From Laetmonice hystrix (lineage: Eukaryota), in the NCBI GenBank assembly GCA_965235115.1, contig OZ249436.1:23996001-24060000 (forward strand): a stretch of DNA of 64,000 nt, given 5' to 3'. The stretch's first letter is position 1. Each line of letters starts with the position of its first letter. Of the stretch, positions 1-33,604 are shown one piece after another. Both the position numbers and the translations under genes were made by a program. The notes beneath the pieces are model-generated. The model worked only from the letters and a program-made list of their open reading frames with translations, ran no database searches and was not told the DNA's origin.

Positions 1-1832
1 AACATGACGAACATATCAATTTCAAACGCTCTTAACAAAAAAACTAACCTGGTGAGGTATCATTTTTTTGGTGAATTTTGAAAGAGGACAACATACTCTG
101 TTTATCTGCAAAATTTAAAAAAAATCTGTCAAAAAAATTTTTTTGGCCTAACACTAGCACTTGTCCTTAACCGTTTTCGAGGTATCACTGATGTTTGGTT
201 GAAAATAACCTAAAAAGGCCAACTTTGAGGGGCCATAAGATGGAAACTATCGAATTTAGGGGAGCCATCTCGGTGTCAGAGATAGTGGACCTATTACCCA
301 ATCCAATGGTGCTGAAATTGGAAATTAGGTCAACTTGGCCGCCATCTTGGATTTTTCAAATTCGCTGAGGATGGGTCAAGTTTTTGATCCTAAACCCAGA
401 CATTGATATCTTTAACCGTTTTCGAGATATACGCCCACCACTGGGCGGAATGGACAAGGTCTCTGTTCTTGAAGGAGTGGAGACTAACGCCAGTCTCTCT
501 TCTTGAAGAAGAGGAGACCATGCCTATTGGGTGTGTTTTTCATATAGGCCTATGCCACCGCTGTGAGTGTGTTGTAGAGAGTATGGTGTAGAAAGATGTC
601 AAGTGTCAGTCCTTTGACACCGGCTGTGGTGGTGGAGGTAGCCGCCACATGTCCTCTTGTAACGAATTTCAGAGGCCTGTAACTTTTATAACTCATAAGC
701 GAAGCTAGATACAGCCATATTTACTATTTACATATAGGAAGTCATACCTGCCTTTTCAGTTGACACCATTCATGATGTAGCGTGAGGTCATAATCATCTC
801 ATTAATATGTCATTAATATTTTTAAGGCCCATAACTCAAAAAACGGGGCGACATAGAGCCATGGTTACCACTGAACATGAATAGGAAGTCGTCATTACGT
901 TCTTTTAATTGACACCAAGATTTATCATGTTGTTTGATCTATTACATCATTATGACGTAATCGACCCCTTCTAAGGATTGGTAGAAGCCTGTAACTAGAT
1001 AGGCCTACATAGTTACTTTTGAACATGAATAGGAAGTCATGCATGTTCTTTCCATTGATAACGGGTCACGGGTGAAAGATAGTACCATAGTTATCCCTAC
1101 TCCGAACATGTTAGACGGGACACCCCGGGGATGGGATCCATTGTGGTACTCCACAACGTACCTAGTTTAATAAGATATTTGCAATTTATTTTACAGAGCA
1201 CATTGGCGGATCCAGGGGGGGGGGGGGCAAGGGGGCCTTGCCACCCCCCCACCAAAACAAAAAATGGCATGTGTTTGGACCAATAGGCCTAGGCTGACTC
1301 TGGCCAATGATGTGGCCAGGGGGCGTTGAACGAGGGTGAGGGGACCGATACCAGAGTCATTGGGCTGATGCTTACGCAAATTAGCAATAATATATCATAT
1401 AAAACCGATTATTTGCCCACATTTGGATGATGCTAGGGCCAGGAGGTCTAAAATTTGGGTGAGGGGGCCAATACCCGAGGTAGGGGGGCAATACTTGAGC
1501 AAAATAACCTAGGCCTAAATTATCATGTAATATTAATATACATTTACTTTTGTATAGTAGGAGCCAGGGAGCACGATGCTAGGGCCAGGGGGCTTGAAAC
1601 TAGGCTGAGGGAGGCCGATACTTAGGTCTACGCAAAATAGTATATAATATGATAACACCGTTATATTTATATATTAATATGTTCCAGGGCCGGGGCCGAT
1701 ACTAGGGCCTGGAAGCCAATACTTGGGCTAGGGGGCCGGAAACTAGGCTAAGGGGCGCCGATTCCAGAAGCAGGGAGTCTATGGCATGCTTATGCAAAAA
1801 TAGCAATAATCTATAATAATATAGGCCTATCA

Positions 1833-4800
1833 TTATTATCCCATTTCCCTTACAGGGAAATGGGATGTTGTTCTTGTGTGCGGTCGTCTTCTCTATTTTT
1901 TTATTATCCCATTTCCCTTACGGGGAAATGGGATGTTGTTCTTGTGCACTGAAAACTTTAGGTCGTCAAGAATTCGTCACATGCTTGTCAAAGTAACAAC
2001 TTTAGCCTCGTCAGTGACACTGACAAACTATTGACAAGGTCATTGTCACAAACTCGTCATAAAGTCCGTTGTAACTGCTTAGAATGTCGCTTACTTGACA
2101 CGTGTTTTACACTTTCGTAACGGATGCCGACAGGAGTACACGAAAGAAGGTAAGCACTGCTTACAGTAATCTAAATAATCTGGTATATAAATGGTGTTAT
2201 ATTGTGTCAGATTATCTGTATATCATAGTAGAATGTTCTTTAGACTTGGGTGGGATGTTAATTTTTGTAAAGAATAGAAGGATGCCCCTAAAATTTATTG
2301 ATTGAAAATGGGCCTCTTGCAAAAAGCCTGACAGTAGAGGCCTTTGTCTGGTATGACAGGTTTGGCGGGACGGAATAAGGGGAGGGCCTAACACTGATTA
2401 GGCCTGGGCTAGGGTTTAGGGAATTCTTGGATCCGCACCTGGTTATAGCCCAATATAGGCGGGGGAATAATAATCGAGCCCTCCTCACATTTGGGGGGGG
2501 GGGCATGGGCCCCCAGTTCCTCAGTTCCATCACCCCTGTTAATAAGTCCCCTGTCTCGTTTTGTTGTAACCAGAACCTTCCCGGTCATTTGTCTGTTCTG
2601 TTAAAGTAATCTTCCAGTTTACCAAAAAATTTAGATAGCCTCCTCGAATTAACAGGGTCGGCCAAGATAAGTAAGGCCAGTTTCTTTAAATGACATGAAA
2701 ATTGAAGGTCCAGAACATATACCGATATTAACATTTTACTTGTGTATTTCAGGACTGAGAAAGCCGTGGAAGAACAAGCATGAGCAAATCGTCTGCAAAA
2801 AGCTGCAGAAGATTAGTGTGAGACTGTCGATGTATTGCAGTTAAAATTACTATTTCTTCACATCTACTATACAGTTTGTGAACTAATATGGACGTGTTTA
2901 ACGGGGGCGGGGGGTCTTTGATTTTATACTTCATGGAAAAAAAGAGTAGTGTGAGACTGTTGATGATGTCTGAAAGTTAAAAAGACAAACTCGCTATTTT
3001 ATTAGTTATAAAGGATATCCCAGCGTCAAAGCAGTGTATATGGAAAAAGTGAAATATAGGCATTTTACCATATCTGTCAAGTTGTTTGTTTTGTCTTAAA
3101 AACCTTTAAATAGTTTAATTGAATGTTTTAATTCTCAGTGTGTTGCAGACGTATTTTTCTTTTCAGACATTGGCATGGATAACAGGTCAATGATTTATGG
3201 AGTGTATCCAGTGTAATTTTTGACAAGGTAGTGTTCTCGACGAGTTTTTGACAAGGTGACGAGTTAAAACTTGTTGTTTTAGGCACCGTCAGATTGACAA
3301 GCCAAAACTTATGTCTGTGTTTTCAGTGTGTGCGTTCGTCTTCTCTATTTTTTTTATTATTATTATCGTCGTAGTTAGACAATCGCAGTTTCTCAGTCAG
3401 TTTTTAAGGTATCTGGATGAAACTTGCACGGTATGTTGGCCATGTCATGACTACCTCTCCATATCAAGCAGTACGTCATGGGCCGTCATGCTTCCGAGTT
3501 ATGACGTGTTACACACGTCAAAAAGCACTTCACATTTTCAACTGTCAAGACCAAAGAAATAGCAATAGGGTAAAGGAAAAGGAATAGTTCCTTAATACTT
3601 TTTTATCAAAATTTAGCTGATGACCTTCTTAAGGACTGGGTCACAGGTCACATCTCACATCTCACATAAATCTACGATTTTGAAGTAGCTTTCTTCAAAT
3701 GAGGGCCAAATTGCACAGAATGATTGCTGGTAGATATGCGCAGAAGTTGTAGCATGGATTTAGCGATATGACGTATATTGACGAAGTCACGTGACATCAA
3801 AATTTGATTCTGTGGCCAGTTTCTTAGGCATCGGTCAAATCTTTAATGAAAATTGTTGTGCTTAAAGAGGGTAGGGTGATAAGCCACATTTATGAAAATT
3901 TTCTCCTGTGACGTCACTTTTTCGTGTCATGACGTCATTCACCTATTCTAGATAGGACCTTCGTACTCTTGGGTTCATGTGTCTCAATAGCTGAGTGGGT
4001 AACATACCCGACCGAAAAGCTGGAGATCACGGGTTCGAAGGAATTTTTATCTGAAATTTTTCGTATTCTTAACGTAAAATGCAAATTTTGTAATTTAGAA
4101 AAAGTATTGAGCTATATTATCTTTTTCTATTTGATGGTCAGTCATATGACCTAAAAGTTGGATTCTATGGCCATTATACCAGAAATCAATCATATCTCTT
4201 GCAGTTTTCAACAGATTTGTATGAAACTAGTTGGGCTTAAAGCAGGTGGGATGTTAAGCCAAATTTATGACAATGTTCTCATGTGACGTCACTGTTATGT
4301 GTTGCGACTTCATCCATCTATTTTAGATATGATCTTAGTACAGCATCAGGTGTGAGTCTCAATAGCTGAATGTGTAACATACCCGTCAAACAGGCTGTTG
4401 ATCATGGGTTCGAATCCCAGTATGAAACAGTATTTTTTATCATATACTTTTCATAATGTAAACGTCCAAATACAAATTTACATTTTTAGTAAAACTATTC
4501 AGCTATATATTTTTTTCAATTTGATAGTCACTCATAGGACCTAAAAGAGGGGTTCTGTGGCCCTTTCACCAGAAATCAGTCATATCTCTTGCAGTTTTCA
4601 ACAGATCTTTATGAAACTTTAAAAGCAGGTGGTATGTTGACCCAAATTTTAGCACACAATATTATTGAACTACAAATTATTCGGAAAACCAAACCCACAG
4701 CTGAACGGTGACTCAGCTAGAATACTCCTTCCAATGAGTTCCCATACACTGTGGGGTTTAGCCCAATTTGGTTTAAATTTGTTGATATAAGTTACGTGAC

Positions 4801-5135
4801 CTAGAATTTTCACTATTTCAAGGGCTCTGACCACACAACTGAATGCAAGTAAAATATGTGGGCTGGTTCCTTAGTAAATTTTTTTACCAATATTTTACAG
4901 ATGACTTTTGACCTTCGTAAGGACTGGGTCACAGGTCACATCTCACATAAATGTATGATTTTGAAGTAAATCTCTTCCAATTATCCTGGTCAAATTTGAC
5001 ATAATGGTTCCACAACAAAATTGCTCTGTATATCAATCTTCATCGTGTAGCCTAAGGGTCAACAGGCTTACAAAAATGTCTGTATCTATTTTAGGGAAAT
5101 GGGATCAATGATTGCAGGCAATCATGCTGACTAGT
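1833..5135 (+). mobile_element. Helentron-associated non-autonomous element (HINE/DINE-like)
   Basis: 5' ttattATCCCATTTCCC...GGGAAATGGGAT subterminal inverted repeat; 3' GGGAAATGGGAT + hairpin (atgattgc-ag-gcaatcat) + CTAGT. A similar 3' end lies at about 1120-1168 and a similar 5' end at about 43180. Confidence 0.6.
1947..3328. mobile_element. Non-autonomous CACTG-type (EnSpm/CACTA-like) DNA transposon
   Basis: Termini CACTGAAAAC...GTTTTCAGTG, 2-bp TSD (TG). Subterminal ttgacaag repeats also recur at about 35050-35345. Confidence 0.7.
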
Positions 5136-5436
5136 TTTTATATTAGGCCTATGTTCCAGGGGCCGCACTGGCGGATCTAGGGGGTTCGGGGGTTCGAACC
5201 CCCACTAAAATTTTGCAGATACACACATTTTAACTTAAGGGGGTTCAAACATTATAATTTAGAAGGTTTTTTTTTTCAGTCGCAAGATAAAAACCACATA
5301 AACTTTTTTTTGCCTCGCTACGCTCGGCATGATACAATTTTGCAGATACACACATTTTAACTTAAGGGGATTCAAACATTAAAACAAACGTTCAAACATT
5401 AAAAAAGATTCATCCTATAGCCAAAGTTGCTGTTGG

Positions 5437-5941
5437 CAGCCGATACGCATGTTCTCCTCTTCTTCAAGAAGAGAGACTGGCGTTAGTCTCCACTCCTTCA
5501 AGAACAGAGACCTTGCCCATTCCGCCCAGTGGTGGGCGTAAGAAATGGAGACTTTCTTCTTGAAAAATGAGAGCAGGTGTATACATTTTGACAAGGAAAC
5601 TAAATTCTATCCTATCCCTATCCCTGACCTTAACCCTAACCCCTATCCCTATCCCTGACCTTAACCCTAACCCCTGCCCAAACATTTCGTGGAAAGTTAT
5701 CATGGGGGAAGAACCCATTGGCTTAACTACCTAAGTGAGATATTCACCTGCTGACCTGCTCGCTGAAGCGGAACCGAGGCGGCAAGGTGATTGGACACCT
5801 AGCTAGTCTCCATTGGAAGAAGAAAGTCTCCATTTCTTACGCCCTCCACTGGGCGGAATGGACAAGGTCTCTGTTCTTGAAGGAGTGGAGACTAACGCCA
5901 GTCTCTCTTCTTGAAGAAGAGGAGAACATGCGTATCGGGTG
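5437..5941. mobile_element. MITE with about 125-bp TIRs and 7-bp TSD
   Basis: TIR CA(G/C)CCGATACGCATGTTCTCCTCTTCTTCAAG...; TSD CTGTTGG at 5430-5436 and 5942-5948. A lone arm of the same TIR lies at about 432-532. Confidence 0.8.
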
Positions 5942-6347
5942 CTGTTGGACTTGAGGAGACCCTTTTGTCCTTGGTCAGGTCATATTGGTCATTGAATAGC
6001 TTATTAGGGCCCTATATGTAGGATCTAGATGGATATGGTGGGTCGCTTTTACGGTAGGCCTAGGCCTACTGTCTATTTTTATTGCAATTCTGGATGTCTC
6101 ACGTCGAATTTTATCAGCCATTTGGGAGCTGTGTCCGTCGCACGTTAAGAAGAGGATGTCACAATGTCGCCCTTCATTTTACGGCCGTGTCCACAGAATG
6201 TCTTCATGTAAACCCATACTAACACCACATTTATGTGGGTGACATTGGTAGAGAAATGCTACCTTCAATTTAATTTGCAGCTATCCACAATACTACACAA
6301 AACATTGGCAGTACAAGGTCTTTGTAAGTAAATTAACAGAATCTCAC

Positions 6348-6395
6348 CTTTTCTTTGTCCTCCTCCTCATCATCATCATCTTCATCTACATATTC
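6348..6395 (-). CDS. MCTP: MCTP coding exon (acidic linker)
   Basis: ctgcag|GAA...AAG|gtgag, 48 bp; EYVDEDDDDEEEDKEK, the acidic stretch between the MCTP TM segments. Downstream exons were not found in 1-6347. Confidence 0.88.
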
Positions 6396-6540
6396 CTGCA
6401 GATTAAAAGATGAAAATCACAAATTACTCACCCAAGACCCGATCAAGATGACTATATGAACTGTATGACTGTATCTGAATATCATGATTTTGAGATTCAC
6501 CGGATGCATGAACTGAACCAGTATGCAAAGAGGCACTCAC

Positions 6541-6666
6541 ATCAACTTCTTTGTCCTTTACGAGGTTTCCAGTGATGTGAACAACTAGGAGGTTCTTGGA
6601 GAATACAATTAGTAGAGTCACCGGCAACATGTAGAGTTCAAAGTTCCAAACGATTATCATGAACAC
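6541..6666 (-). CDS. MCTP: MCTP coding exon (first transmembrane region)
   Basis: ttcaag|GTG...GAT|gtgagt, 126 bp; VFMIIVWNFELYMLPVTLLIVFSKNLLVVHITGNLVKDKEVD (VWNFELYMxP motif). Confidence 0.93.
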
Positions 6667-7530
6667 CTTGAAGAGAACAATTGGTATGGTGGCTATTCAG
6701 GGTGAAACAACAAACTGTGAAACTTGTTCATTACTGTATCCCTTGGTCCATTGGGGTTATAATGAGGATGAGGATGAACAAGAACCCCCCCCACACACAC
6801 ACACACACACACCCACCCACCCACACACCCACACACACTGGGAGACAATCTCCTGCTCTTTAAAAGTTCTGTCATATGCCCAGTTCCAAAGATATTGTGA
6901 TGTGTGTGAGGTAGAATTCCTTTGTGAGCAAGACTAATCCGTCAGGCGGCGCTGTGGTCTGGTAGTTGTTAAATGTTCCGCCAGAGGAAGCTAAGGTGGT
7001 GGGACCTTCCGGTACACTAGCACTAACATTGGAGGTTCCGGTTTTCTCAGTGAGACCAGAAAGTTCCGGTAATAGTCGGAAACTAGAAAGTTCTCGGACA
7101 TCTGAACGTATATATAAGCCAGGTAGAAGTGTTGATGGAGGAGACTTGCATTGATATCTAACAGAGAGTGTTGTTTAGTGTCTACGTTAGAACAAGACCT
7201 GATTGACGATTGTGAAACTGTGGATTATTTTTTTTTTTTTTTTAGATTCGTTTATTTATCCTGGAAAAGTTTTCGGTACAAGTACAGAGAGTACCGGTTT
7301 TCAAAACCGTCCAGCTGCGGGTTTAACATTATAGCGATATGTGGTAAAATTAACTAATAACTAGTAGATGGCGTCAGTAAAGACTTGCTGGCGCTTAATA
7401 TAGTCAGTTAAATTAAACAATTGATGATGGCATTGTTAACCAAGTGTAGTACATGTATACATATAAACCCATTTTGAAATGAGATGAGATGTGTTTGATG
7501 AAAAGTTTAGAAATGATAACACGGCCGTTT

Positions 7531-9440
7531 TCAGGTATCCATAAGATTTGCGAGTTTAGATCGTAGTAATCTTTTCTGGGCATTTTTAAACGGCTTAATG
7601 TCCGAGATCTGCTTTAGGTTTGTGTCCATTGCATTCCACATGACTGCTCCTCTAAATCCAACACTTCTTTTGAGTACATTCTTTTTTGGCCGAGGAACTA
7701 TTAGCGTTTTATTGTCATGAAGCCTAGTATGGAGTAACCGCCTGTCCACATAGTCAGGATCAGCGGATCTGGTATGCATAAGGATTAGTAGGTGCGAGTC
7801 CCTTCTATCTTTAAGAAGATTCATGTTAGCTTTGCGATGTACTTCTAAGGTGTCGGTATCACGTGGCAAGCTTAAGGCTATTTTTAGTCCTTTATTTTGT
7901 ATTCGTTGAATCTTATTCAGAAGGGTCACATTTGTGCCTGCATACAGAGTGTCACCATATTCTATGTAAGGAAGTACCATGGTTTTGTACATTTTAAGAC
8001 AGGCATCATTGGTAAGGTACGGTCGTATTTTGGATAACAGGTATACTTTGTGACTAGCCTTTTTTATTGTGTTGTTTGCATGTTTGGTAAAGGAGAGGGA
8101 CTTGTCAAGGATGACACCTAGATATTTATAGTCTTGCACTGGCTCCAGGTTGTTGTTCGCAATCTTTAAGGATGGGTCTTTTAGGTTTTTGAGCTTATGG
8201 GGTGTACCAAAAGTCATAAATTTAGTTTTCTTAGCGTTGATTGTTAGGCTATTTTCATTACACCAATTGGAGATGGAGTCAAGGTCTCTTTGAAGGTGAG
8301 AGTTCAAGGAGATGACGTCATGACCAGAAATATACAATATGGTGTCATCAGCGTGGAGTTTAATTTTAGAATGAAGGACTGAGGAGGACAGATCATTTAT
8401 GTAGCAGAGGAAGAGGAGCGGCCCCAGGACTGAGCCCTGGGGAACCCCGCATGTCACCCGCAGTGGATCAGAGGTTAAGCCGTTTGCACAGGTAGTTTGT
8501 GTCCTGTCGTTCAAGTAATTCTGTATCCAACCTACAGCATTTCTTGATAGGCCCAGCCTAGATAGCTTCTTTAGCAGTATAGCGTGGTTAATAGTATCAA
8601 AGGCCTTCCTGAAGTCGATAAAAACGTCAAAGGTCACTTGGGAATCATTCATTGCTTCGTAGATGTCGTCCGTAACCTTTGCTATGGTTGAGATAGTAGA
8701 CCGGCCCTCCCTGAATCCACCTTGATTATTATCCAGTATGTTGTGCGTTGTTAAGTATTGGGTGATTTGGTGATGTATTATTTTCTCCAGTAGTTTTCCA
8801 GGGAGTGGTAGTAATGAGATGGGCCTTAGATTATTGACATCTGCTGGATTGCCGTCTTTCGGTAGTGGTATCACAGTTGCCGATTTCCATGTTTTTGGGA
8901 TAACGTTGGAAGTAATTGACAGATTGAATAGGAAAGTTAACTTTGGGATAAGTACAGAGAAGGCGTCTTTTAGGATTCTTGTAGACAAGTCTGTTAAGGC
9001 AGATGATTTGTGTATGTTAATTGCTTTAACCAGTGTAGTAGTTGTTTCATCGTCAATCGGTTTAAAATCTAGACTTGATTTAAAGTTAGGTCCCCGATAG
9101 GCCCAGTGTTTGTCAAAGGCCTCTGCGAGTCTTGGCCCTATGGAGACAAAGAATTTATTAATGAAGTCCGCGGTTTTTGCTGGTTCAATTGGGGTGCCGG
9201 AGTCGTTCATAAGATTGATTGTATGGTTGTGTTTTTTCCCATCCGGCAGAATCTCCTTAATCGCTTTCCAATACTTGTTAGGATCGTCTTTATGTAATTC
9301 AAGTTTCCTTTTATGTAGTCAGCTTTAGCATATTTTACTAAGTTTATTACCATGTTTTTCAAGCGACGTGCGATGCGCCAGTCATCAGGGTTATTTGTAC
9401 ATTTTGCTTTATTCATAAAGTAGTCTTTGTCCTTTATTTT
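7531..9440 (-). pseudogene. LINE ORF2 reverse transcriptase, APE endonuclease domain absent
   Basis: NLRPISLL, DFRKAFDTI, GVPQGSVLGPLLF, HADDT (YADD changed to HADD), YKYLGV. 1-nt frameshift near 9310; no APE-coding sequence upstream. Confidence 0.9.
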
Positions 9441-9532
9441 AGCCTTTCGGACACCTCATAGTTCGAGTGGGGTGATAAGGCAGTACGTTGCTAGCGAGAG
9501 ACGTTACACAATACTGTATGTTACATATTCGT

Positions 9533-10225
9533 TTAGATTAATTTCAAGTTTTGTAAGTTGAGATGGATGCCTTTTGTCAGCACCCGTGCCCATAAGTCCA
9601 CTGTTTCATGGTCTGGGTGCAACCCGTCTCTGAATCTAATGTACTTATGTACTCTCTTCCCTCTCACAAGGCAGTGGATAGTATCTTGCAGAAAGGGAGA
9701 CTGAAGTTTATAATCGCTGTTTATGAGAGTTATCGTTTGGTTTAGAGTAACACAAATGTCGTTTATCAGGTCCTGGTCGCCAGCTGCGTTTAAGGCTATG
9801 GCTGTAGTACTGGGGGTTTGGTGTTGACCTTTGATGTGGTTATTGTATTTATCAAGGTCAAGGCCAATGAGGTGACAAATAATCACATTGTTGGCAAAAC
9901 ATTTCAGAAAGGTTTTAGCAAAGGTTAATTCATCTGTGAGTCTATCAACAGCCTCAGGAATCTCGTCGAAGACTGGAGAGACACGTTTGTCGGCGTTCTT
10001 CCTGGTAAGGTTATTGACCCCAGCAAAAAGCAAAACTAAGTCATAGTGATTATGTCTTCCAGAAAGGATCTCTTTAGATGCGGATTGAAGTGTTGCGCCT
10101 GGTTTAAAGATGACTTCGAAATCACAGGAAAAGTTATGCTTTAAGAGTTCTGAGTCCATTGCCTGACGTAGTTGCTTTCCTCTTGAGTCCATTAGGAGTA
10201 GCACACTTGGGATTTTACGGGACAT
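9533..10225 (-). CDS. LINE-encoded SGNH/GDSL esterase
   Basis: Blocks I MDSRG, II KPGATL, III AGVNNL and V DGLHP (Ser and D-x-x-H retained). The ATG overlaps the ORF1 end (ATGTCCCGTAA). Confidence 0.85.
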   Translation of the reverse strand: MSRKIPSVLLLMDSRGKQLRQAMDSELLKHNFSCDFEVIFKPGATLQSASKEILSGRHNHYDLVLLFAGVNNLTRKNADKRVSPVFDEIPEAVDRLTDELTFAKTFLKCFANNVIICHLIGLDLDKYNNHIKGQHQTPSTTAIALNAAGDQDLINDICVTLNQTITLINSDYKLQSPFLQDTIHCLVRGKRVHKYIRFRDGLHPDHETVDLWARVLTKGIHLNLQNLKLI

Positions 10226-11561
10226 TACCTTGGGTGGTTGCTTGTCCTCTCAATTGTGACCTCACCTTCTCGAGGATCTCTCCCAGCTTGTTTTGGCCTG
10301 GGTTGTTGGGACCTATGGTTTGGTATCTAGAGAAGGGAATTCCTACTCCGAAGAGCCGGTCACTTGTTCCCTCATACAATTTGGCGTCGCCTGTGGCAAG
10401 GAGCTTGTCAGCTAGTGAGGGGTTTTGTGCGAATTTCGCTCTCACTAACTGCTCTAGTACCGAGATCTTGGCTTTGTCCCAGTCTGAGGTGGTTTCGATT
10501 TGTTTGCCAATTTGTTTGCATGCGTATGGGTCAAGTGTTTTCAGTACCTCGAAGGCAGCCGCAGGTGATTGACAGCGTGTCGCCCATGCGTGTACATAGG
10601 CTTGCTCTACATGTTGAAATTTACCAGTTGGTAACTCTATTGGGGCCCTGTAAAAGTTCGATAGGAAGGAGTGTTCGCCTTGGAACACTATTCCCCCATT
10701 GATGTGAACTGTTTTGGCGTTCTCTAAGCTTAGCTCTTGGGGCAGGTCATTGAGCGTTCCGTGTGTGTACCTTGTGTTTTGTACGACTATGCCTTGCCCA
10801 CTCCACCTGGCGCTAATACCCTTTTTCTTTGCAAGGTGTATGACTGAACGGAGATCAGCTTTGCGACGGGAGGCTTCAGGGGTTAGGTCGTCAGAGATTG
10901 TAACACGTTTCCACTTAGGTAGATCTTGAAGTAGCTTTATTTGCCTAAAAATAAGCCCTTTGTGATGTATCTTATCCAACTGCACGAGAATAGGCCTGGG
11001 TAGCTGGCCGGATTCCTTTGGCTGACCTATTCGGTAAATAATCCCGCAGTCATTTGTGGTCAGGCCCGTCTTCAAATCAGAAAATAAACTGTTAACAATG
11101 GATCTAACATCCTTTTCATTTTCTGTGAACCCATGTATGATTCGATTGGATCTGCGTTTGTTCGACTCCATATCCTCTATTTTCTTTTCTAGTTTAGAAA
11201 CTCGAGACTCGTTATGTATAAGTTCCTGCTCCATAGATGAGACCTTGTTACTTAGTTCAGTAATGGTGTTCTGTTGGTCAGCGATAGTGCTAAGTAGGTC
11301 CTCAGTAGTTCTGGTGTTGTTGTCCAGCGCTAGTTGAATTCCGTCAATTTTGGTATTCAGGGACTGTTGCAGTTTAGCTGTGTCCTCCTTGGAGGACAGG
11401 GTTAGCATGGTCTTGTAAATCATGTCAAGCGTTACCTTTGACTCCTTGTCCATGGTCGGGGGATTAGTTGTTGGAGAAGGTGGCTCACCTGTTATGGCCG
11501 CTGTGGGTTCCTGGTAGGACGAGGACCGCTGCTTTCCACTTCGAAGTGTGTTGTAATTCAT
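10215..11561 (-). CDS. LINE ORF1: coiled coil + L1-type RRM/CTD + C-terminal NADAR (YbiA-like) domain
   Basis: aa 60-135 heptads; RRSNRIIHG...YRIG...RPILV...ISDDLT (ORF1p RRM); aa 291-437 FLSNFY...VEQAY...KQIGK...W...AKFAQNPSLADKLLATGDAKLYE..DRLFGVG...GQNKLGEILEKVR (NADAR signature). Confidence 0.88.
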   Translation of the reverse strand: MNYNTLRSGKQRSSSYQEPTAAITGEPPSPTTNPPTMDKESKVTLDMIYKTMLTLSSKEDTAKLQQSLNTKIDGIQLALDNNTRTTEDLLSTIADQQNTITELSNKVSSMEQELIHNESRVSKLEKKIEDMESNKRRSNRIIHGFTENEKDVRSIVNSLFSDLKTGLTTNDCGIIYRIGQPKESGQLPRPILVQLDKIHHKGLIFRQIKLLQDLPKWKRVTISDDLTPEASRRKADLRSVIHLAKKKGISARWSGQGIVVQNTRYTHGTLNDLPQELSLENAKTVHINGGIVFQGEHSFLSNFYRAPIELPTGKFQHVEQAYVHAWATRCQSPAAAFEVLKTLDPYACKQIGKQIETTSDWDKAKISVLEQLVRAKFAQNPSLADKLLATGDAKLYEGTSDRLFGVGIPFSRYQTIGPNNPGQNKLGEILEKVRSQLRGQATTQGNVP

Positions 11562-11708
11562 TACACAGTGACATCCAGTATATATCCAGGTGGTTCCTGA
11601 TGATGTGTCGGTAATTATAAGCCAATTTTTTTCCTCCCCTCTAAGCGCAATCCCGGGTTAACTACAGATTATCACAGAGCTCAATATCAGTCGTCACTCT
11701 TTGGTCGA

Positions 11709-11718
11709 CGCCATCTTG
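11709..11718 (-). promoter_or_regulatory. YY1-type motif CAAGATGGCG near LINE 5' end (putative internal promoter)
   Basis: CAAGATGGCG at +15 to +24 from the inferred element start. Confidence 0.45.
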
Positions 11719-12156
11719 TTCCGAGTCAATCGCTGTGGGATTACGAAAGCTGTCATATTTGCGCGGTGAGCCGTGTAGGCCTACAAGTCTTCAATTCGTG
11801 TGCTTATGAAGTGTTGGCAACTTCAGTGAAAGACTAATCTGCGGATTCCTGTAGTATCTGGACGTGTGCTGTGGGCATTGTGCTTGTGAAATCAACAGAG
11901 GAAACCCAACTGGAACTTTATTTGAACTCTCACTTGGATTTACGTGTGGACTGGGAACGTTCTGGAATTGCAGACAGGACAATAGACCACAATAGAGAGT
12001 AAGCCAGTAGGAACCTTCTGGAAGGTAAAACACTGAGTTTTGTGATTGTAAATCAAACCTTATTTGTCATCGTTGTGTAACTGTGAGGATTCATTAAACT
12101 GTTAAAATTAAATTCTGGTGTTTGTCATCTACTGCCATTGGCTACGTAACATAAAT

Positions 12157-12174
12157 TGGGGGCTCGTCCGGGAT
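12157..12174 (+). other. Primer-binding site, tRNA-Pro
   Basis: TGGGGGCTCGTCCGGGAT, 18-nt complement of the tRNA-Pro 3' end, 5 nt after the LTR end. Confidence 0.92.
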
Positions 12175-12252
12175 CTGAGCAAATTTGGCATCATTGAGCC
12201 ATTATTTTAGAAATTGTCTGCCATCTTTGTTTCAAGAACATTCTTACTCAAA

Positions 12253-13283
12253 ATGTCAGCGGCCGTAGATGATTTTGTGGCAGCGCCAACTGTAGACGAG
12301 TTGAGGAAGCTTAGGAAGTCTGAGTTGTTTGCAGTTGCTGAGAAGTATGAGTTAGATGAGGTGACGAAAGGTATGACAAAGGCAGTTATCCAAAGGAAAA
12401 TAGCTGAGTTTTATTATGAGGAAGATATCTTCACCGTAGATCAGTTAAATCAGTTTGTGGACATTGAGAAGGGGAAACCCATGTCAGACAAGGAATTAAA
12501 ACTCAAAATGAGTTAGAAGAGAAAGAGAAACAGAGACAGTCCGACTTAGACAAAGAAAAGCTTGAGTTAGCGAAAATGAGAGAGAAGGAACAGTTTGAGT
12601 TAGAGAAACTTAGGTTGAGTGGAGGAGGAAGAAGCCATTCAGATGACTCCCAGAGGTTTTCTGCTAGCCGAGAAGTTAGGTTAGTTCCTCCATTCGATGA
12701 AAAAGAAGTAGACAACTACTTTCAACATTTTGAAAAGGTAGCTGAGAGTTTGGAATGGCCACCGCAATACTGGCCTCTGATGTTGCAGAGTGTTATCAAA
12801 GAAAAAGCACAACAGGCATATTCTGCATTGTCGGTTCACGATTCCTCAGATTATGAGATTGTCAAGAAAGCCATTCTAACTGCATATGAGTTAGTTCCAG
12901 AAGCTTACAGGCAAAAGTTTAGAAATTGGAAAAAGAGGGACAGTCAGACTTATGTGGAGTTTGCTCATGACAAAGAGGTGTTCTTTAAACGTTGGTGAAA
13001 CTCAATGTCAGTTGACAAGGACTTTGACAAGTTGAAGGACTTGATGTTGGTTGAGGAGTTCAAATGCTGTGTCAAAGATGATATTAAGTCCTATCTTGAT
13101 GAAATAGATGCCGTCACACTTCAGAAAGCTGCAAAATTAGCAGATGAGTATGCACCACTCATAAGTCCAAATTTGGGTCCGGTGATAAGTCTCAGTTCTA
13201 CAAGAAGAAAGACAATGGTACCAAACCAAGTTTCCAGAGAAATGACAGCAGAAACAAGAGCAACTAGAAACACTGATTGCTGA
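12253..13283 (+). pseudogene. Gmr1-like gypsy gag (SCAN-like capsid region), frameshifted and truncated
   Basis: LVPPFDEKEVDNYFQHFEKVAESLEWP...AYELVPEAYRQKFR...LMLVEEFK; frameshift at about 12505, stop at 12998, no pol. Confidence 0.8.
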
Positions 13284-30406: not shown

Positions 30407-30734
30407 TGTATAATTAAGTGATTATATTTTGTCTAGCCACGTAGATCACGTCATGCTTTTATCCAGTTAAAAGTGTACACGCTTCCCTCACGATAGAGCA
30501 TTATTTAGGACGCATGCGCAATTAAAATAGGAGGCGGGGACATGAGAAGAATTGGGATATAAATATATGTATTGGATTGATAATAAAGGAGAGAGAGTAG
30601 AGTGGAGAGATTGGCGACTACTGTATGTGAGTTTGCGTTGTTCCATCCCCAACGACTGGGAGGCCGGCCGCTGAGCTAGGAATATGGCAGTCTTGGCTTA
30701 GCTGGCCGGCACCTCAAACATTATATACTTTACA
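30407..30734 (+). mobile_element. LTR (TGTA...TACA, 328 bp) of env-bearing gypsy element
   Basis: Preceded by polypurine tract AAGCGGGAAGGGGG (30391-30404); contains TATAAA and AATAAA; followed by PBS TGGCGCCCGA (30736-30745, tRNA-Lys-like). Confidence 0.75.
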
Positions 30735-30844
30735 CTGGCGCCCGAGGAGTGTGGCTGACGGGCGGCCACACTGGCCTGAACCCGGGAGGAGAATGGCCGA
30801 CGCGGCCCGTCACCGTGAGCGTCACCTGGCCGGATTCCTCCGTG

Positions 30845-31927
30845 ATGTGGCCTCCACGGATTATTTTGACCGATCAAGGTATCGAGTTTAAAGGTGTCGA
30901 AATGGCGGCATATATGAGGTCGATGGGGATCGAACACAGGAGGTCTACACCATTTCACCCCCAAACCAACGGCCGGTTGCAGCGGGCCCATCGTTCATTA
31001 AAGGGGATTCTGCGGGAACTTACTGACACCAGAGCTGAGGAATGGGAGGACTGTCTGGCGGGTGCTCTCATGGCGTATCGTTGCACGCCCGGTGTCAGTG
31101 GGTTCACCCCCTATTTTTTGTTGTACGGCAGGACTCCTGAAGCTCCTACCCAGCGGTTGCTGCACCCACCCCCTGATGCGGAGCGGGACGCGGTGTTGCG
31201 CTTTGACCATCTCGCCACAGCGTTTCAGCAAGCTACGCGGGACACGAGGGAGTCGAGGACTCACAACTATGCGCGGCTGACACGTCAGGCGAATGCCGCC
31301 CCTTTATCAGTGGGAGATTTTGTTGTTTTGAAGGTGTCTGAGCGGGTGACACTCGACCCCCGCTGGGATCATCTGTACCTGGTGACAGCATTGCGGGACC
31401 CCGTTATCTCTATCACGGACCAACGTACCGGTCATCGGCGAGTGGTGAATAGGGACAAGCTGCTCCTTGTGGATGCCGATGACTGGGAGGGTGTACGGCC
31501 GAGGGTCAAGCAGGGCAGTCGCCCTCCACGCCGTACTGTGCCCCCTTCCCCTGATCAGGGATTGGCTCCTCGGGAACGTCCAAATATCAACTTGGACCGG
31601 GTGGCTCCGGGTGTTTTTGCGCGCCAGGGTACAACATTGGATCGCTCTGCCCCCTGACCGTCAACATTGCGGGCTCGAACCGGGCCCCAGCCGTCAACAT
31701 CAGATGCCGCTGCACCTTCTGTCGGGGTGCGTCCGGTGCCCATGGCCACGGGGGAGGGTGCGCCGTCAGAGACGCCCGTGGATACCGAACCGATTGGTAT
31801 GCGCACGCGTAAACGGTTACGTCAGCGGTTCAATGAGGGGGATCCCCGTTTAGTTAAGAGGCGTTGTTCTGAAGCGTTTCTTTCTGTCATAGCTGCCTTG
31901 TCACCATGGAATGCTCATTTTGTTTAG
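30845..31927 (+). pseudogene. Gypsy integrase core + C-terminal tail (gag/PR/RT/RH deleted)
   Basis: ILTDQGIEF...STPFHPQTNGRLQR (catalytic E changed to Q)...AYRCTP...TPYFLLYGR; in-frame stop at 31655-31657, frame continues to 31927. Confidence 0.88.
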
Positions 31928-33604
31928 CTGCGCTGCTGCTTTGTCAGTTTTGTTTCATGGATGTGTCGGGCCAACTTCGCCATCCTATACCGAACGGAGT
32001 CTTGTTGTCCCGCGACGCGGACGTGTGGGTGCTCAACGCCAGGTGGACGGTGGTTACTTCCATCTCCAGGCCCGAGGAGCCTCCCATGCTGGGATGGATC
32101 GCATTCGCCTTGGGCCGTCTTTCGGACGCTGCAGCGGTGGTCCCACCTGGTCATCGTGCAGTGATGGAGGCTAGGCTTCGTAGCCTGCAATTGTTATATA
32201 CGGATAATGATGTCTCCCCACCGTCATCACCCTCGCGTCTGAGGCGGGGATTGCTGGACTTCGTCGGCGAGCTGTCATCAGCACTGTTTGGTACCGCCAT
32301 GACGGGTCAGGTTGAGGCTGTTAGGCGACAACTTGCTTTGGCTGTCCGCCGGCAGGAGGTTTTATTTCGTGACCAAGTTAAGTTTGTATCGGTTTTGAAC
32401 GCTACGAGGTGGCAGGCGGTGCGTAACCATGGTGACATTGTTGTTTTGGCGGCGAATATTTCACGGCTTTTGGAGCAGGAAGATGTGCTGGCTTTTCGCC
32501 TGGATCAGCTGGAGGTGTGGATTTCTGCATATTTTGGAGCAGCTGGATCAACTTAGTATGATCGTCCAGCTACGTCGCCGGGCCTATGTTGCGGCCTGTG
32601 AAGCCATGAGGTCGGGCCACCTTTCCAGGGATGTAATAGAGGACGACCCTCTACAGGATATTTTGAATATTTTGTCGCGTCACGGTTTCATCATGCGATT
32701 AGACTGGTACAGAGCGTATACTCCTGTTCGCACCTTGTGGGATACTGCGGATTCCTTGACGTGTGTATTTACCTTGTGGTCTGCTGATGGGAAGCAGTAT
32801 GTGTTATGGTCTTTGAGACCACTGTGGTTCCGGAGTGGTGGTCTAGTGATTCGATATAGGACCCGCTCCCCTGTGATTACCGACGGAGTTTTTTCTACCC
32901 AGCTTGTGCCGGACCATTGCCAGGGTAATACTAACAAGATTTGTTTTGTTTCACAATCAGACTATGATACTTGTGAACTTGATCTTATCCAAGGCCGTCC
33001 TGTGACTTGTCCGTTTGACGTGTCCGCGACCGAGCGGCCCCACCTTGACTTTCTGGCGACTGGGGCATGGCTTGTTTCGGTAGCGCGGTGTGTGAACTTT
33101 ACCGTTCGTTGCCCAGATCGTGCGCCGCGAGACTTTGCTGTGTGTGAGCCGGAGAGGTGGAATATCTCCACCGAATGTGTTATTGACTGGCCTTTTGGCA
33201 GATCTATCCGTACTAGCCATTTGTTCTTGACTGTGGAACCAAGGTATTATGCGCCGTTGAAGTGGCATAACTTTTCAATTCCGTCGGTGAAGCGTCGGCA
33301 GATTTCAGCCGCTTTGGCCATGCATGCCCGTCTCATTGTTGATCCTCGAGCGGACTTATCAATCTCGTCGCCCAGTGTCGTTGCGGGTGGAATTGTTTTG
33401 GATAGTTTGCCTTTGACTTTATCTGCGGTGTCACTTTTTGTTGCTGTAGTAGCGAGTGTTGTCGCCTGTTATTGTTATATCCGATGTAACATTGATTCTG
33501 TGTGCTGCTGGGGAGGGCGGGGACAGGAGGCGGAGGCACGTCCGCCCCACCTGGATGATGTCGCTGCTGGTCTCGCTCTGCCATTGCCGGGGCCAGAGCA
33601 GTGA
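31906..33604 (+). pseudogene. F-type (errantivirus/baculovirus-F-like) envelope glycoprotein, one frameshift at about 32525
   Basis: Signal peptide; furin site RLRR then GLLDFVGELSSALFGTA fusion-peptide motif; heptads; Cys-rich ectodomain; TM LTLSAVSLFVAVVASVVACYCYI. Confidence 0.85.

Follow-up and report, generated by a model that had tools for sequence, protein, structure and literature searches.

The LINE described here encodes, in its first open reading frame, an L1-type ORF1 protein (ORF1p) joined to a NADAR domain of the YbiA type, and the same architecture was found at many places in this genome and among public proteins. Lists of accessory domains in LINE ORF1 usually name PHD, zinc knuckle, RRM and esterase. 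The initial annotation had assumed that NADAR was not known in this role, a premise that has been overtaken: NADAR domains in ORF1 of Crassostrea gigas 'Tx1' LINEs from Repbase are reported in PMC12477816 (Genome Biol 2025), the available text of which treats them in two sentences and an alignment. The novelty is thus limited, since the fusion is already published, and the feature itself stands. A literature search on NADAR in LINE or retrotransposon ORF1 gave nothing relevant beyond that paper; beyond what its available text covers, we examined how many copies there are, which catalytic residues are kept, how selection has acted and where the linked esterase occurs.

Organisation of the element

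The window is the whole stretch of Laetmonice hystrix DNA that was analysed (64,000 nucleotides). The LINE copy within it is about 4.5 kb long, lies on the minus strand, and is young and internally deleted. From 5′ to 3′ it consists of the following parts:

11562..11728, minus strand: 5′ UTR of about 167 nt, the probable 5′ boundary being placed from empty-site-like contig joints that end at 11729-11738 (sides 20-21 nt)
10215..11561, minus strand: ORF1, 448 aa, ORF1p-NADAR fusion (uninterrupted ATG-to-stop frame, Pfam, AlphaFold, Foldseek)
11151..11432, minus strand: predicted coiled coil, aa 44-137 (single long AlphaFold helix at aa 58-136, alignment with the L1 ORF1p coiled coil, weak coiled-coil Pfam matches)
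10707..11150, minus strand: L1-type RRM and CTD, aa 138-285 (profile matches to 2YKP and 2LDY, Foldseek match to 2YKP)
10248..10676, minus strand: NADAR domain, YbiA type, aa 296-438 (Pfam, 8BAU and 2B3W matches, fold, residue map)
9533..10225, minus strand: second ORF, 230 aa, putative SGNH/GDSL-type hydrolase (conserved residues, model, PDB matches)
9439..9440, minus strand: internal junction at which about 2.2 kb (spacer, endonuclease and start of ORF2) is missing, by comparison with full-length relatives
7531..9455, minus strand: ORF2 remnant without endonuclease, composed of a linker (9207-9455) and the RT ORF (7531-9318) (RVT_1, 5e-39; ORF list)
7244..7530, minus strand: 3′ UTR (96-99% identity to 5′-truncated copies)
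7228..7243, minus strand: poly(A) tail of 16 A (sequence)

The initial annotation had described an uninterrupted 448-aa ORF at the ORF1 position of a TSD-flanked, poly(A)-tailed LINE. Both the frame and its position agree with what we found: it runs unbroken from ATG to stop, and the SGNH-type ORF, the RT ORF and the 16-A tail lie downstream on the same strand. The ORF1 stop and the ATG of the SGNH ORF, which lie in different frames, overlap by 11 nt.

The target-site duplication, on the other hand, was not borne out. No exact flanking repeat of 9 nt or longer was found around the element by an exact-repeat search. Both 'TGTGG(G)ATTA' words are already present in contigs where the surrounding repeat is uninterrupted, so the duplication left is 2 bp at most ('AT'), an estimate that we hold with moderate confidence, the joint sides being only 20-21 nt long. 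Two candidates were rejected, namely an 8-mer shared by the flanks, which is a chance match, and the likeness of 'TAATCC(C)ACAG' at both ends, which belongs to the target repeat itself.

The deletion was recognised from the relatives of the element. Near-identical relatives and those of 63-70% identity all begin aligning at 9439, and in four elements (L032, L033, L031 and L035) ORF2 sequence extends upstream of the equivalent point. In the window copy, no ORF or Pfam match for an endonuclease was found between 9455 and 9533. With the endonuclease missing, this copy fails as an autonomous APE-type LINE, although RT and poly(A) are present.

Intact ORF1 and esterase frames beside a crippled ORF2 could indicate that the window ORF has been domesticated as a LINE-derived host gene. 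There is also no close second copy of this ORF1 (the next has 62% amino acid identity), and read depth is 51-67 over ORF1 vs 325-700 over the RT part. We consider domestication very improbable, however: the insertion is poly(A)-tailed and sits within a high-copy repeat, and its RT part and 3′ UTR share 96-99% identity with other copies, so that intact frames are expected from youth alone.

The ORF1p half

In line with the initial reading of the first ~280 aa as a coiled coil plus L1-type RRM/CTD, a family profile matched human L1 ORF1p (2YKP, E 4.7e-12, profile positions 92-258) and 2LDY (E 5.9e-6). The AlphaFold model of the 448-aa ORF, which was of the monomer only, had an overall pLDDT of 85, with the N-terminal coiled coil as a long helix; Foldseek aligned it with 2YKP (E 1.7e-7, TM 0.64-0.68). 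The Pfam profile Transposase_22, which had been named as a further check on this half, gave no match at E≤0.01 in the window ORF and the nine relatives scanned. By profile and predicted fold, ORF1 is the nucleic-acid-binding ORF1 protein of a LINE. It resembles mammalian L1 ORF1p (2YKP, 2YKO, 2LDY, 2W7A) in its coiled coil followed by RRM and then CTD; L1 ORF1p stops after the CTD, whereas the window ORF1 adds an enzyme fold of ~160 aa.

The NADAR domain and its active site

Pfam NADAR (PF08719) matched aa 296-438 of the window ORF with E 2.7e-25, covering profile positions 9-163 of 163, and the score of 90 bits lies far above the curated cut-off of 35.1. The sequence also matched 8BAU (E 1.6e-10 as a single sequence, 3.3e-27 as a profile) and 2B3W (E 8.5e-23). 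Across the domain the AlphaFold pLDDT was 93-97, and Foldseek placed the model on 8BAU (E 2.4e-11) and on the YbiA structure 2B3W (E 9.5e-9), both with a target-normalised TM of 0.72, so that the annotated likeness to YbiA holds in both sequence and fold. All the motifs that had been listed were found at their residues: SFLSNFY at 298-304, E319-x-x-Y322, K349-x-x-G-K353, W361, K376-F-x-Q-N380, L387-L388-x-T390-G391, E397, D401-x-x-F404-G-x-G407 and G422-x-N424-x-L-G427...V-R434.

For the active site we compared 28 aligned ORF1 proteins, which share as little as 21-35% identity, with the Phytophthora enzyme (8BAU) at the 13 residues by which it contacts ADP-ribose. Residues were mapped by hand from the printed 8BAU alignment, and a constant offset of 2 fitted 13 of 13 named residues. 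The equivalents of E43 (E88 of E. coli C7) and E125 are E319 and E397; each is glutamate in all 28 proteins, and by this mapping they are the predicted pair that holds the distal ribose. The D130 equivalent, D401, is aspartate in 26 of 28, the W133 equivalent is aromatic throughout (28/28), and all but one of the 28 have K or R at the R93 equivalent. The equivalent of K50 (K95 of C7) varies, with K in 13 proteins, R in 10, C in 4 and W in one; the window ORF has W326 here in place of the phosphate-/adenine-binding lysine, and three of the four cysteines belong to its close relatives L035, L005 and L006. The adenine-stacking Y84 is replaced by T, S or D family-wide.

Mutation of the lysine in the E. 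coli C7 NADAR is reported to abolish efficient hydrolysis (PMC11543638). The window copy and its closest relatives have W or C in place of this phosphate-binding residue, so their domain may be less active or may act on a different target. The description of the NADAR domain as intact holds with one reservation, the W326 at the K50 position.

Distribution of the fusion

Searching the genome for the ORF1-NADAR architecture gave 94 scored matches from 872 candidates, most of them spanning aa ~40-440 at 27-64% identity and many free of stops; the PF08719 cut-off was passed by 9/9 other ORF1s tested. In a library of 1.84 billion public proteins, 142 of the best 150 clusters (50% identity) matched continuously, from the RRM through to the NADAR end. 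The joining of ORF1 to an unrelated NADAR gene by a chance chimera or an assembly artefact, the case in which the fusion would exist in this copy alone, is refuted by the genome-wide matches, the Pfam results and the public clusters: the fusion occurs at 94 genomic places at least. In addition, contigs from independent runs span 9410-11758 in one piece, and we give an artefact practically no credence. The sequencing runs found were three DNA runs, all from one sample.

A search for homologous proteins returned 19 ORF1 and 403 ORF2 matches, none of them usefully named. The taxonomy of the public relatives reads 'Eukaryota, commonest Annelida', the phylum being known for 1-3 members. Longer public relatives (600-780 aa) were considered as fused esterases and rejected, their C-terminal extensions being low-complexity Q/P/S-rich tails.

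In the full-length relatives L035, L037, L039, L041, L043 and L045, an ORF2 of 905-1039 aa comes after ORF1-NADAR, and Pfam found Exo_endo_phos and RVT_1 in the five ORF2s scanned (L035, L037, L039, L041 and L043). The expected position of NADAR upstream of SGNH and APE-RT ORFs was thus seen for the APE-RT ORF2 in full-length relatives, and for SGNH only in some families.

The class of ORF2 was examined in 11 elements and was assigned from PDB scores, Pfam zf-RVT and a C-terminal motif. The ORF2 of L035, the closest full-length relative of the window copy, scored about equally against L1 ORF2p (3.9e-14) and R2 (2.8e-12) and had no zf-RVT match in Pfam. The C-terminus of the family's ORF2 we take, by its motif, to be CR1/jockey-like. 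On these sequence features the window family is classed as a non-L1, CR1/jockey-like LINE outside the Tx1/L1 group. The family of L040 and L044, by comparison, is L1/Tx1-like, its ORF2 matching human L1 ORF2p with E 7.6e-86 and zf-RVT with 1.6e-6. The branch of L040 has an ordinary length in the ORF1 tree (0.91) vs 5.57 for ORF2. As judged from sequence, the ORF1-NADAR module is common to many diverged LINE families, one L1/Tx1-like family among them, and it may have moved between L1/Tx1-like and CR1-like lineages.

The second ORF

Among 11 copies of the second ORF, S14, G43 and H203 are invariant and N71 is nearly so. Its model had a pLDDT of 84 and 116 PDB matches at E≤0.001, all those listed being SGNH/GDSL enzymes. 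Pfam gave no match for the window SGNH ORF, and the L040 copy scored 24.5 vs a cut-off of 32.9. The Ser-Gly-Asn-His blocks and the modelled fold identify the product as a predicted SGNH/GDSL-type hydrolase. CR1/L2-type LINEs have an esterase-bearing ORF1, and the likeness is that in both cases the SGNH/GDSL hydrolase is placed 5′ of ORF2; here, by contrast, the esterase is a separate ORF behind an L1-type ORF1p-NADAR and is present only in some NADAR families.

A match to the SGNH ORF lies at most 1.5 kb downstream of 31 of the 94 ORF1 matches. At six further NADAR-bearing loci the esterase was missing from five, and the sixth (L035) retained a 38-aa remnant; NADAR and esterase therefore need not act together.

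Selection and apparent recent activity

Between L035 and L006, dN/dS (NG86) was 0.07 overall and 0.10 in the NADAR part. In most other inter-family pairs dS was saturated, with dN of 0.2-0.7 (NG86), and within-family pairs, with dS of about 0.01, were too close to inform. The dN/dS check proposed at the outset thus points to purifying selection on ORF1-NADAR, at about 0.1 where measurable. One lysine-less family looks recently active, as four of its copies are ~99% identical and the 955-aa ORF2 of L035 is intact, which suggests that the lysine, and perhaps catalysis, would be dispensable for spread.

Possible function of the NADAR domain

As ORF1p would coat the RNA of the element, the NADAR domain would ride in the retrotransposition particle. 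There it would most likely be an N-glycosidic hydrolase that takes a ribosyl adduct off nucleic acid, with ADP-ribose attached to guanine (or cytosine) in the LINE RNA, the cDNA or the nicked target DNA as the leading candidate substrate. Its removal would reverse a host modification that stands in the way of reverse transcription or integration, and viral macrodomains and the NADARs of invertebrate nidoviruses are thought to act likewise. Taken as a whole, an ORF1p-NADAR protein whose in-particle hydrolase undoes host ADP-ribosylation is the best explanation that we can offer; we hold it tentatively, as somewhat short of an even chance.

An eraser or counter-defence function is plausible and fits the invariant glutamates and the purifying selection deduced from the sequences. 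Eukaryotic NADARs that are not linked to toxins are described as stripping ADP-ribose from guanine in DNA (PMC11543638). Some NADARs, on the other hand, act on small molecules, riboflavin intermediates, according to PMC9303266 and PMC11543638, and the nematode SNA-3 NADAR domains are without known substrate (PMC9303266). Also against an eraser are W326 here and C in 4/28 at a lysine needed in E. coli C7 (PMC11543638), and the family-wide change at Y84. A genome search for a host writer with Pfam PF01375, the family of pierisin/CARP-1-type DNA ADP-ribosyltransferases, gave no match, but the controls of that search gave none either, so the negative carries no weight.

These same substitutions would suit a non-catalytic reader, in which the NADAR fold binds ADP-ribose, NAD or a nucleotide and steers the particle, possibly towards ADP-ribosylated chromatin or sites of DNA breakage, or adds affinity for nucleic acid: the phosphate-binding lysine is lost in the window copy and four other aligned proteins while the lineage still looks active, and the stacking tyrosine is changed throughout. 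Yet both glutamates are kept in 28/28 and D401 in 26/28 even at the lowest identities, a pattern typical of retained catalysis, and a reader seems to us rather unlikely.

An active N-glycosidase or hydrolase could also have a different substrate, such as a nucleotide that is damaged or unusual, an adduct at an RNA end (NAD cap, ADP-ribose-phosphate), or an acetylated ADP-ribose product, which it would process jointly with the SGNH esterase. YbiA-type enzymes are reported to hydrolyse ribosylamines of the riboflavin pathway, and NADAR was first tied by context to RNA processing (both PMC9303266, PMC11543638); the esterase ORF behind about a third of the ORF1 matches points the same way. Its absence from five of the six further loci counts against such an activity, which we regard as unlikely.

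Returning to the eraser, a wider and doubtful extension would be that lophotrochozoan LINE particles carry a NADAR-ORF1p kit, often with an SGNH esterase, that erases a host ADP-ribose mark on RNA, cDNA or the integration site and is mobile between L1/Tx1-like and CR1-like lineages. If true, this would be the earliest proposal of a catalytic counter-defence in a LINE particle, nucleic-acid ADP-ribosylation would be an antiretroelement weapon in animals, and invertebrates would restrict retroelements and RNA viruses alike by means of ADP-ribosylation; nidoviruses that share these hosts, an oyster nidovirus included, are described as carrying NADAR and macro domains as well. Elsewhere in animals, NADAR domains are reported to be scarce (PMC9303266). 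Dozens of intact, diverged natural copies, some of which have the phosphate-binding lysine while others lack it, make the function testable.

Comparison with known NADAR systems

The C. gigas Tx1 elements share with the window copy a YbiA-type NADAR within a lophotrochozoan LINE ORF1, and the ORF2 of L040/L044 is likewise L1/Tx1-like; the oyster families are called Tx1 in PMC12477816, whereas the window family's own ORF2 is of non-L1 type. The P. nicotianae NADAR (8BAU), E. coli YbiA (2B3W) and the DarT1-linked NADAR antitoxins have the same fold, glutamate pair and most of the ADP-ribose contacts (PMC11543638). In contrast to these, the window NADAR is joined to a retrotransposon RNA-binding protein, has no partner toxin and carries W for K50. 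We also noticed that the NADAR part alone groups with phage-rich NADAR clusters at 0.91, which is no evidence of origin.

Repeated insertions of NADAR are described for invertebrate nidoviruses, Pacific oyster nidovirus 1 among them (PMC11848433, PMC12377751), and an Ectocarpus Gypsy Pol bears an N-terminal NADAR (PMC12477816). As described in these sources, they resemble the present LINE in that an RNA-based genetic parasite has independently gained NADAR. The nidovirus and Gypsy domains (with macro domains too in nidoviruses) lie within replicase or Pol polyproteins, whereas here the domain is part of a nucleic-acid chaperone; they were compared at the level of the domain family.

Domain architecture of the ORF1 protein

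The LINE copy in the window lies on the minus strand and contains the following features.

Features of the LINE copy in the window
10215..11561, minus: ORF1, 448 aa, from ATG to stop (ORF reading)
9533..10225, minus: second ORF, 230 aa; from its ATG it shares 11 nt with the end of ORF1, in a different frame
9207..9455, minus: linker fragment, 82 aa (ORF list)
7531..9318, minus: reverse transcriptase (RT) ORF (RVT_1, 5e-39)
7228-7243, minus: run of 16 A following the 3' UTR (sequence reading)

A Pfam search placed NADAR (PF08719) at aa 296-438 of ORF1 with an E-value of 2.7e-25 and 90 bits (curated cut-off, 35.1 bits), covering profile positions 9-163 of 163, and every NADAR motif read in the initial annotation was present at its residue. 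As a single sequence, ORF1 matched the solved NADARs of Phytophthora nicotianae (8BAU, E 1.6e-10) and E. coli (YbiA, 2B3W, 1.1e-5); with a profile of 28 aligned family members (A1), the values for the same structures were 3.3e-27 and 8.5e-23. The profile also matched human L1 ORF1p (2YKP/2YKO, E 4.7e-12, profile positions 92-258) and, more weakly, the L1 ORF1p RRM-CTD entry 2LDY (5.9e-6) and the RRM entry 2W7A (0.0068). The Pfam model Transposase_22 gave no match to window ORF1 at E 0.01.

In an AlphaFold model of ORF1 built on A1 (mean pLDDT 85, pTM 0.66), aa 58-136 form a long helix, 139-293 fold into a mixed alpha/beta region and 296-444 make up a compact domain. When the model was compared with the PDB using Foldseek, 8BAU came first (E 2.4e-11, TM 0.72 on the target), 2B3W came second (TM 0.72), and chains of the L1 ORF1p trimer ranked third (TM 0.53-0.68). 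The profile, model and fold matches therefore confirm the proposed order of coiled coil, L1-type RRM/CTD and NADAR.

Extent of the family

The ORF1-NADAR fusion is a family and not, as had been considered, a chance chimera in this copy. Across the 627-Mb genome, the ORF1 protein gave at least 94 scored matches out of 872 first-look candidates. Most cover aa ~40-440, with 27-64% identity, and many lack a stop; the closest relative among the matches listed was 62-64% identical. The NADAR cut-off was passed by all nine other ORF1s scanned with Pfam, RVT_1 was found in all six ORF2 frames scanned (905-1098 aa), and five of these six had an Exo_endo_phos endonuclease domain. Searching 1.84 billion cluster representatives with the A1 profile yielded 2852 proteins at E<=1e-30, and 142 of the best 150 were matched in one stretch from the RRM start or earlier to the NADAR end (profile start <=147, end >=417). 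The other eight are either truncated or carry several NADAR repeats. Domestication or artefact has little probability as an explanation. In the protein atlas, eukaryotic NADAR clusters of 415-489 aa are marked 'commonest Annelida', with very few labelled members.

The supposed novelty of NADAR as a LINE ORF1 accessory domain did not hold, as a YbiA-type NADAR has already been reported in ORF1 of Pacific oyster Tx1 LINEs from Repbase, and also in Ectocarpus Gypsy Pol (PMC12477816). The window contributes the size of the family, its occurrence in both non-L1 LINEs and an L1/Tx1-like one, a linked SGNH ORF, evidence from single residues and from selection, and natural variants without the lysine.

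Among the public proteins, P0024 (1075 aa) has five NADAR-matching stretches and P0020 (4240 aa) seven; the explanation is either a tandem arrangement of NADAR or the fusion of several LINE copies in one gene model. Q/P/S-rich low-complexity tails of 250-350 aa follow NADAR in P0046, P0056, P0069, P0078, P0074 and others, and P0092, P0099, P0110 and P0130 carry ~240 extra N-terminal residues.

Active site, selection and possible function

Thirteen ADP-ribose contacts have been named for the Phytophthora enzyme, and in the E. coli C7 NADAR the residues corresponding to E43, K50 and E125 are important (Schuller et al. 2023, PMC11543638). The contacts were mapped by hand from the alignment of ORF1 with 8BAU, in which all 13 fall at one constant offset of 2.

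Phytophthora contacts, window residues and counts over the 28 sequences of A1
E43: E319; E 28/28
E125: E397; E 28/28
D130: D401; D 26/28
W133: F404; aromatic 28/28
W89: W361; W 21, F 5 of 28
R93: K365; K or R 27/28
R79: K353; K or R 21/28
K75: K349; K 21/28
K50: W326; K 13, R 10, C 4, W 1 of 28
Y84: T358; T 18, S 7, D 3 of 28

Judging from these residues, the family as a whole retains a catalytic-looking site. The phosphate-binding lysine is lost in the window copy and in four C-bearing proteins, including its close relatives at loci L035, L005 and L006. This lysine-less sub-lineage still looks active, because it has four ~99%-identical copies and L035 has an intact 955-aa ORF2. That the NADAR domain is a non-catalytic reader seems rather unlikely.

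The suggested dN/dS comparison across ORF1 copies (NG86) gave 0.07 overall and 0.10 in NADAR for L035 against L006; window ORF1 against L006 gave 0.10 in RRM/CTD. For most other inter-family pairs dS was saturated, with dN of 0.2-0.7, and within-family pairs were too close for informative dN/dS.

Family-wide and under constraint, the LINE RNA-coating protein thus carries a fused NADAR fold whose catalytic glutamates are conserved. The domain would travel in the retrotransposition particle and may hydrolyse a ribosyl adduct on nucleic acid. By analogy, base-linked de-ADP-ribosylation could serve as counter-defence, a reading that we hold tentatively: eukaryotic NADARs de-ADP-ribosylate guanine in DNA (PMC11543638), cytidine ADP-ribosylation is likewise reversed by NADARs (PMC12945103), and invertebrate nidoviruses, including an oyster virus, have acquired NADAR repeatedly, often with macrodomains (PMC11848433, PMC12377751). 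Action on another substrate seems unlikely. An RNA-processing role has been suggested for the oyster and Ectocarpus domains (PMC12477816).

The linked SGNH esterase ORF

In 11 aligned copies of the second ORF, S14, G43 and H203 are invariant and N71 nearly so; the motifs DSRG, GVNN and DGLHP hold these residues, which form the Ser-Gly-Asn-His signature. The window ORF and the relatives scanned did not reach Pfam cut-offs. Against the PDB, the structural model (pLDDT 84, pTM 0.84) had 116 chain matches at E<=0.001; among those listed, every one is an SGNH/GDSL enzyme. The genome holds at least 123 matches to this ORF. Such a match follows within 1.5 kb, in the same orientation, for no fewer than 31 of the 94 ORF1 matches; with both match lists incomplete, this number is a minimum. 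At six further NADAR-bearing loci, the esterase is absent from five and reduced to a 38-aa remnant in L035.

Spacers of 1.1-1.5 kb separate ORF1 or the esterase from ORF2 in the otherwise intact-looking elements L035 (5236-6399), L037 (5141-6311), L039 (3397-4937) and L031 (3898-5267). These spacers contain no ORF of >=150 aa, and in that of L035 the esterase remnant alone was recognised.

LINE lineages carrying ORF1-NADAR

Eleven ORF2s, named by locus, fell into three groups.

Groups of ORF2
Group A: window, L031, L035, L037, L038, L039, L043
Group B: L041, L045, L046
Group C: L040

L1/Tx1-like LINE copies of 7 kb, with ORF1-NADAR, a separate SGNH ORF and ORF2 with zf-RVT
L040: 808-7804
L044: 357-7245

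Over 7 kb, L040 and L044 align collinearly with 99.6% identity, and their ORF1-NADAR, esterase and ORF2 therefore belong to one young element; ORF2 has one frame break in each copy, at different places. This ORF2 is L1-like (human L1 ORF2p, E 7.6e-86 over 700 aa; zf-RVT, 1.6e-6), whereas that of L035 scored about equally against L1 (3.9e-14) and R2 (2.8e-12) and has a C-terminal motif which we take to be typical of CR1/jockey-group elements. In maximum-likelihood trees, ORF1 and ORF2 agree within groups A and B. The end branch of L040 is 5.57 for ORF2 and an ordinary 0.91 for ORF1 (median 0.71), which suggests, in trees that are small, unrooted and without reference clades, that the ORF1-NADAR module (plus esterase) has been shared between deeply separate LINE lineages.

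Structure and surroundings of the window copy

No endonuclease was found on the minus strand downstream of ORF1 in the window copy (ORF list, Pfam). A DNA search of the genome found near-identical copies (96-99%) for 9439 down to 7228 only, and several matches, near and distant alike, start exactly at 9439. Upstream of this point, ORF2 sequence runs on in the near-identical copies as well as in L031 and L035, which are full-length relatives, whereas the window copy switches there to the end of the esterase region. The copy in the window thus lacks ~2.2 kb, through internal deletion (or template switching).

In contigs from three public DNA runs, all of one sample, 9410-11758 is covered without a break; these contigs have seven single-base differences, and both ORF1 and the esterase ORF stay open. 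Contig depth was 51-67 across ORF1 and the esterase, rose to 325-700 in the RT part and reached 1000-8000 in the flanks, so the 5' half of the element is low-copy and the element lies inside a high-copy repeat. Four contig joints, with sides of only 20-21 nt, connect 7184-7228 straight to 11729-11738; they look like uninterrupted copies of the surrounding repeat and put the limits of the element at about 7228 and 11728 (4.5 kb).

The element had been described as TSD-flanked. The likeness of its ends is not a target-site duplication, because contigs of uninterrupted repeat copies already hold both 'TGTGG(G)ATTA' words; it belongs to the target repeat, and any duplication is 'AT' at most, as read from joint sides of 20-21 nt. 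An exact-repeat search found no exact flanking repeat of >=9 nt around the element.

The repeat around the LINE corresponds to window 7100-7227 and 11729-12200, and the adjoining ORFs at 12253-12998 (+) have no Pfam match. At 8421 the window copy has 28 nt that other RT-part copies lack, as seen in contigs at full depth in each of the three runs. A CA/TG-type microsatellite lies at 6700-6900, just 3' of the LINE flank, and reads as His-Thr repeats in the ORF lists. At 30680-33604 (+), three ORFs of 227-401 aa, the first with a weak rve integrase-core match (E 3e-4, below cut-off), probably represent another transposable element.
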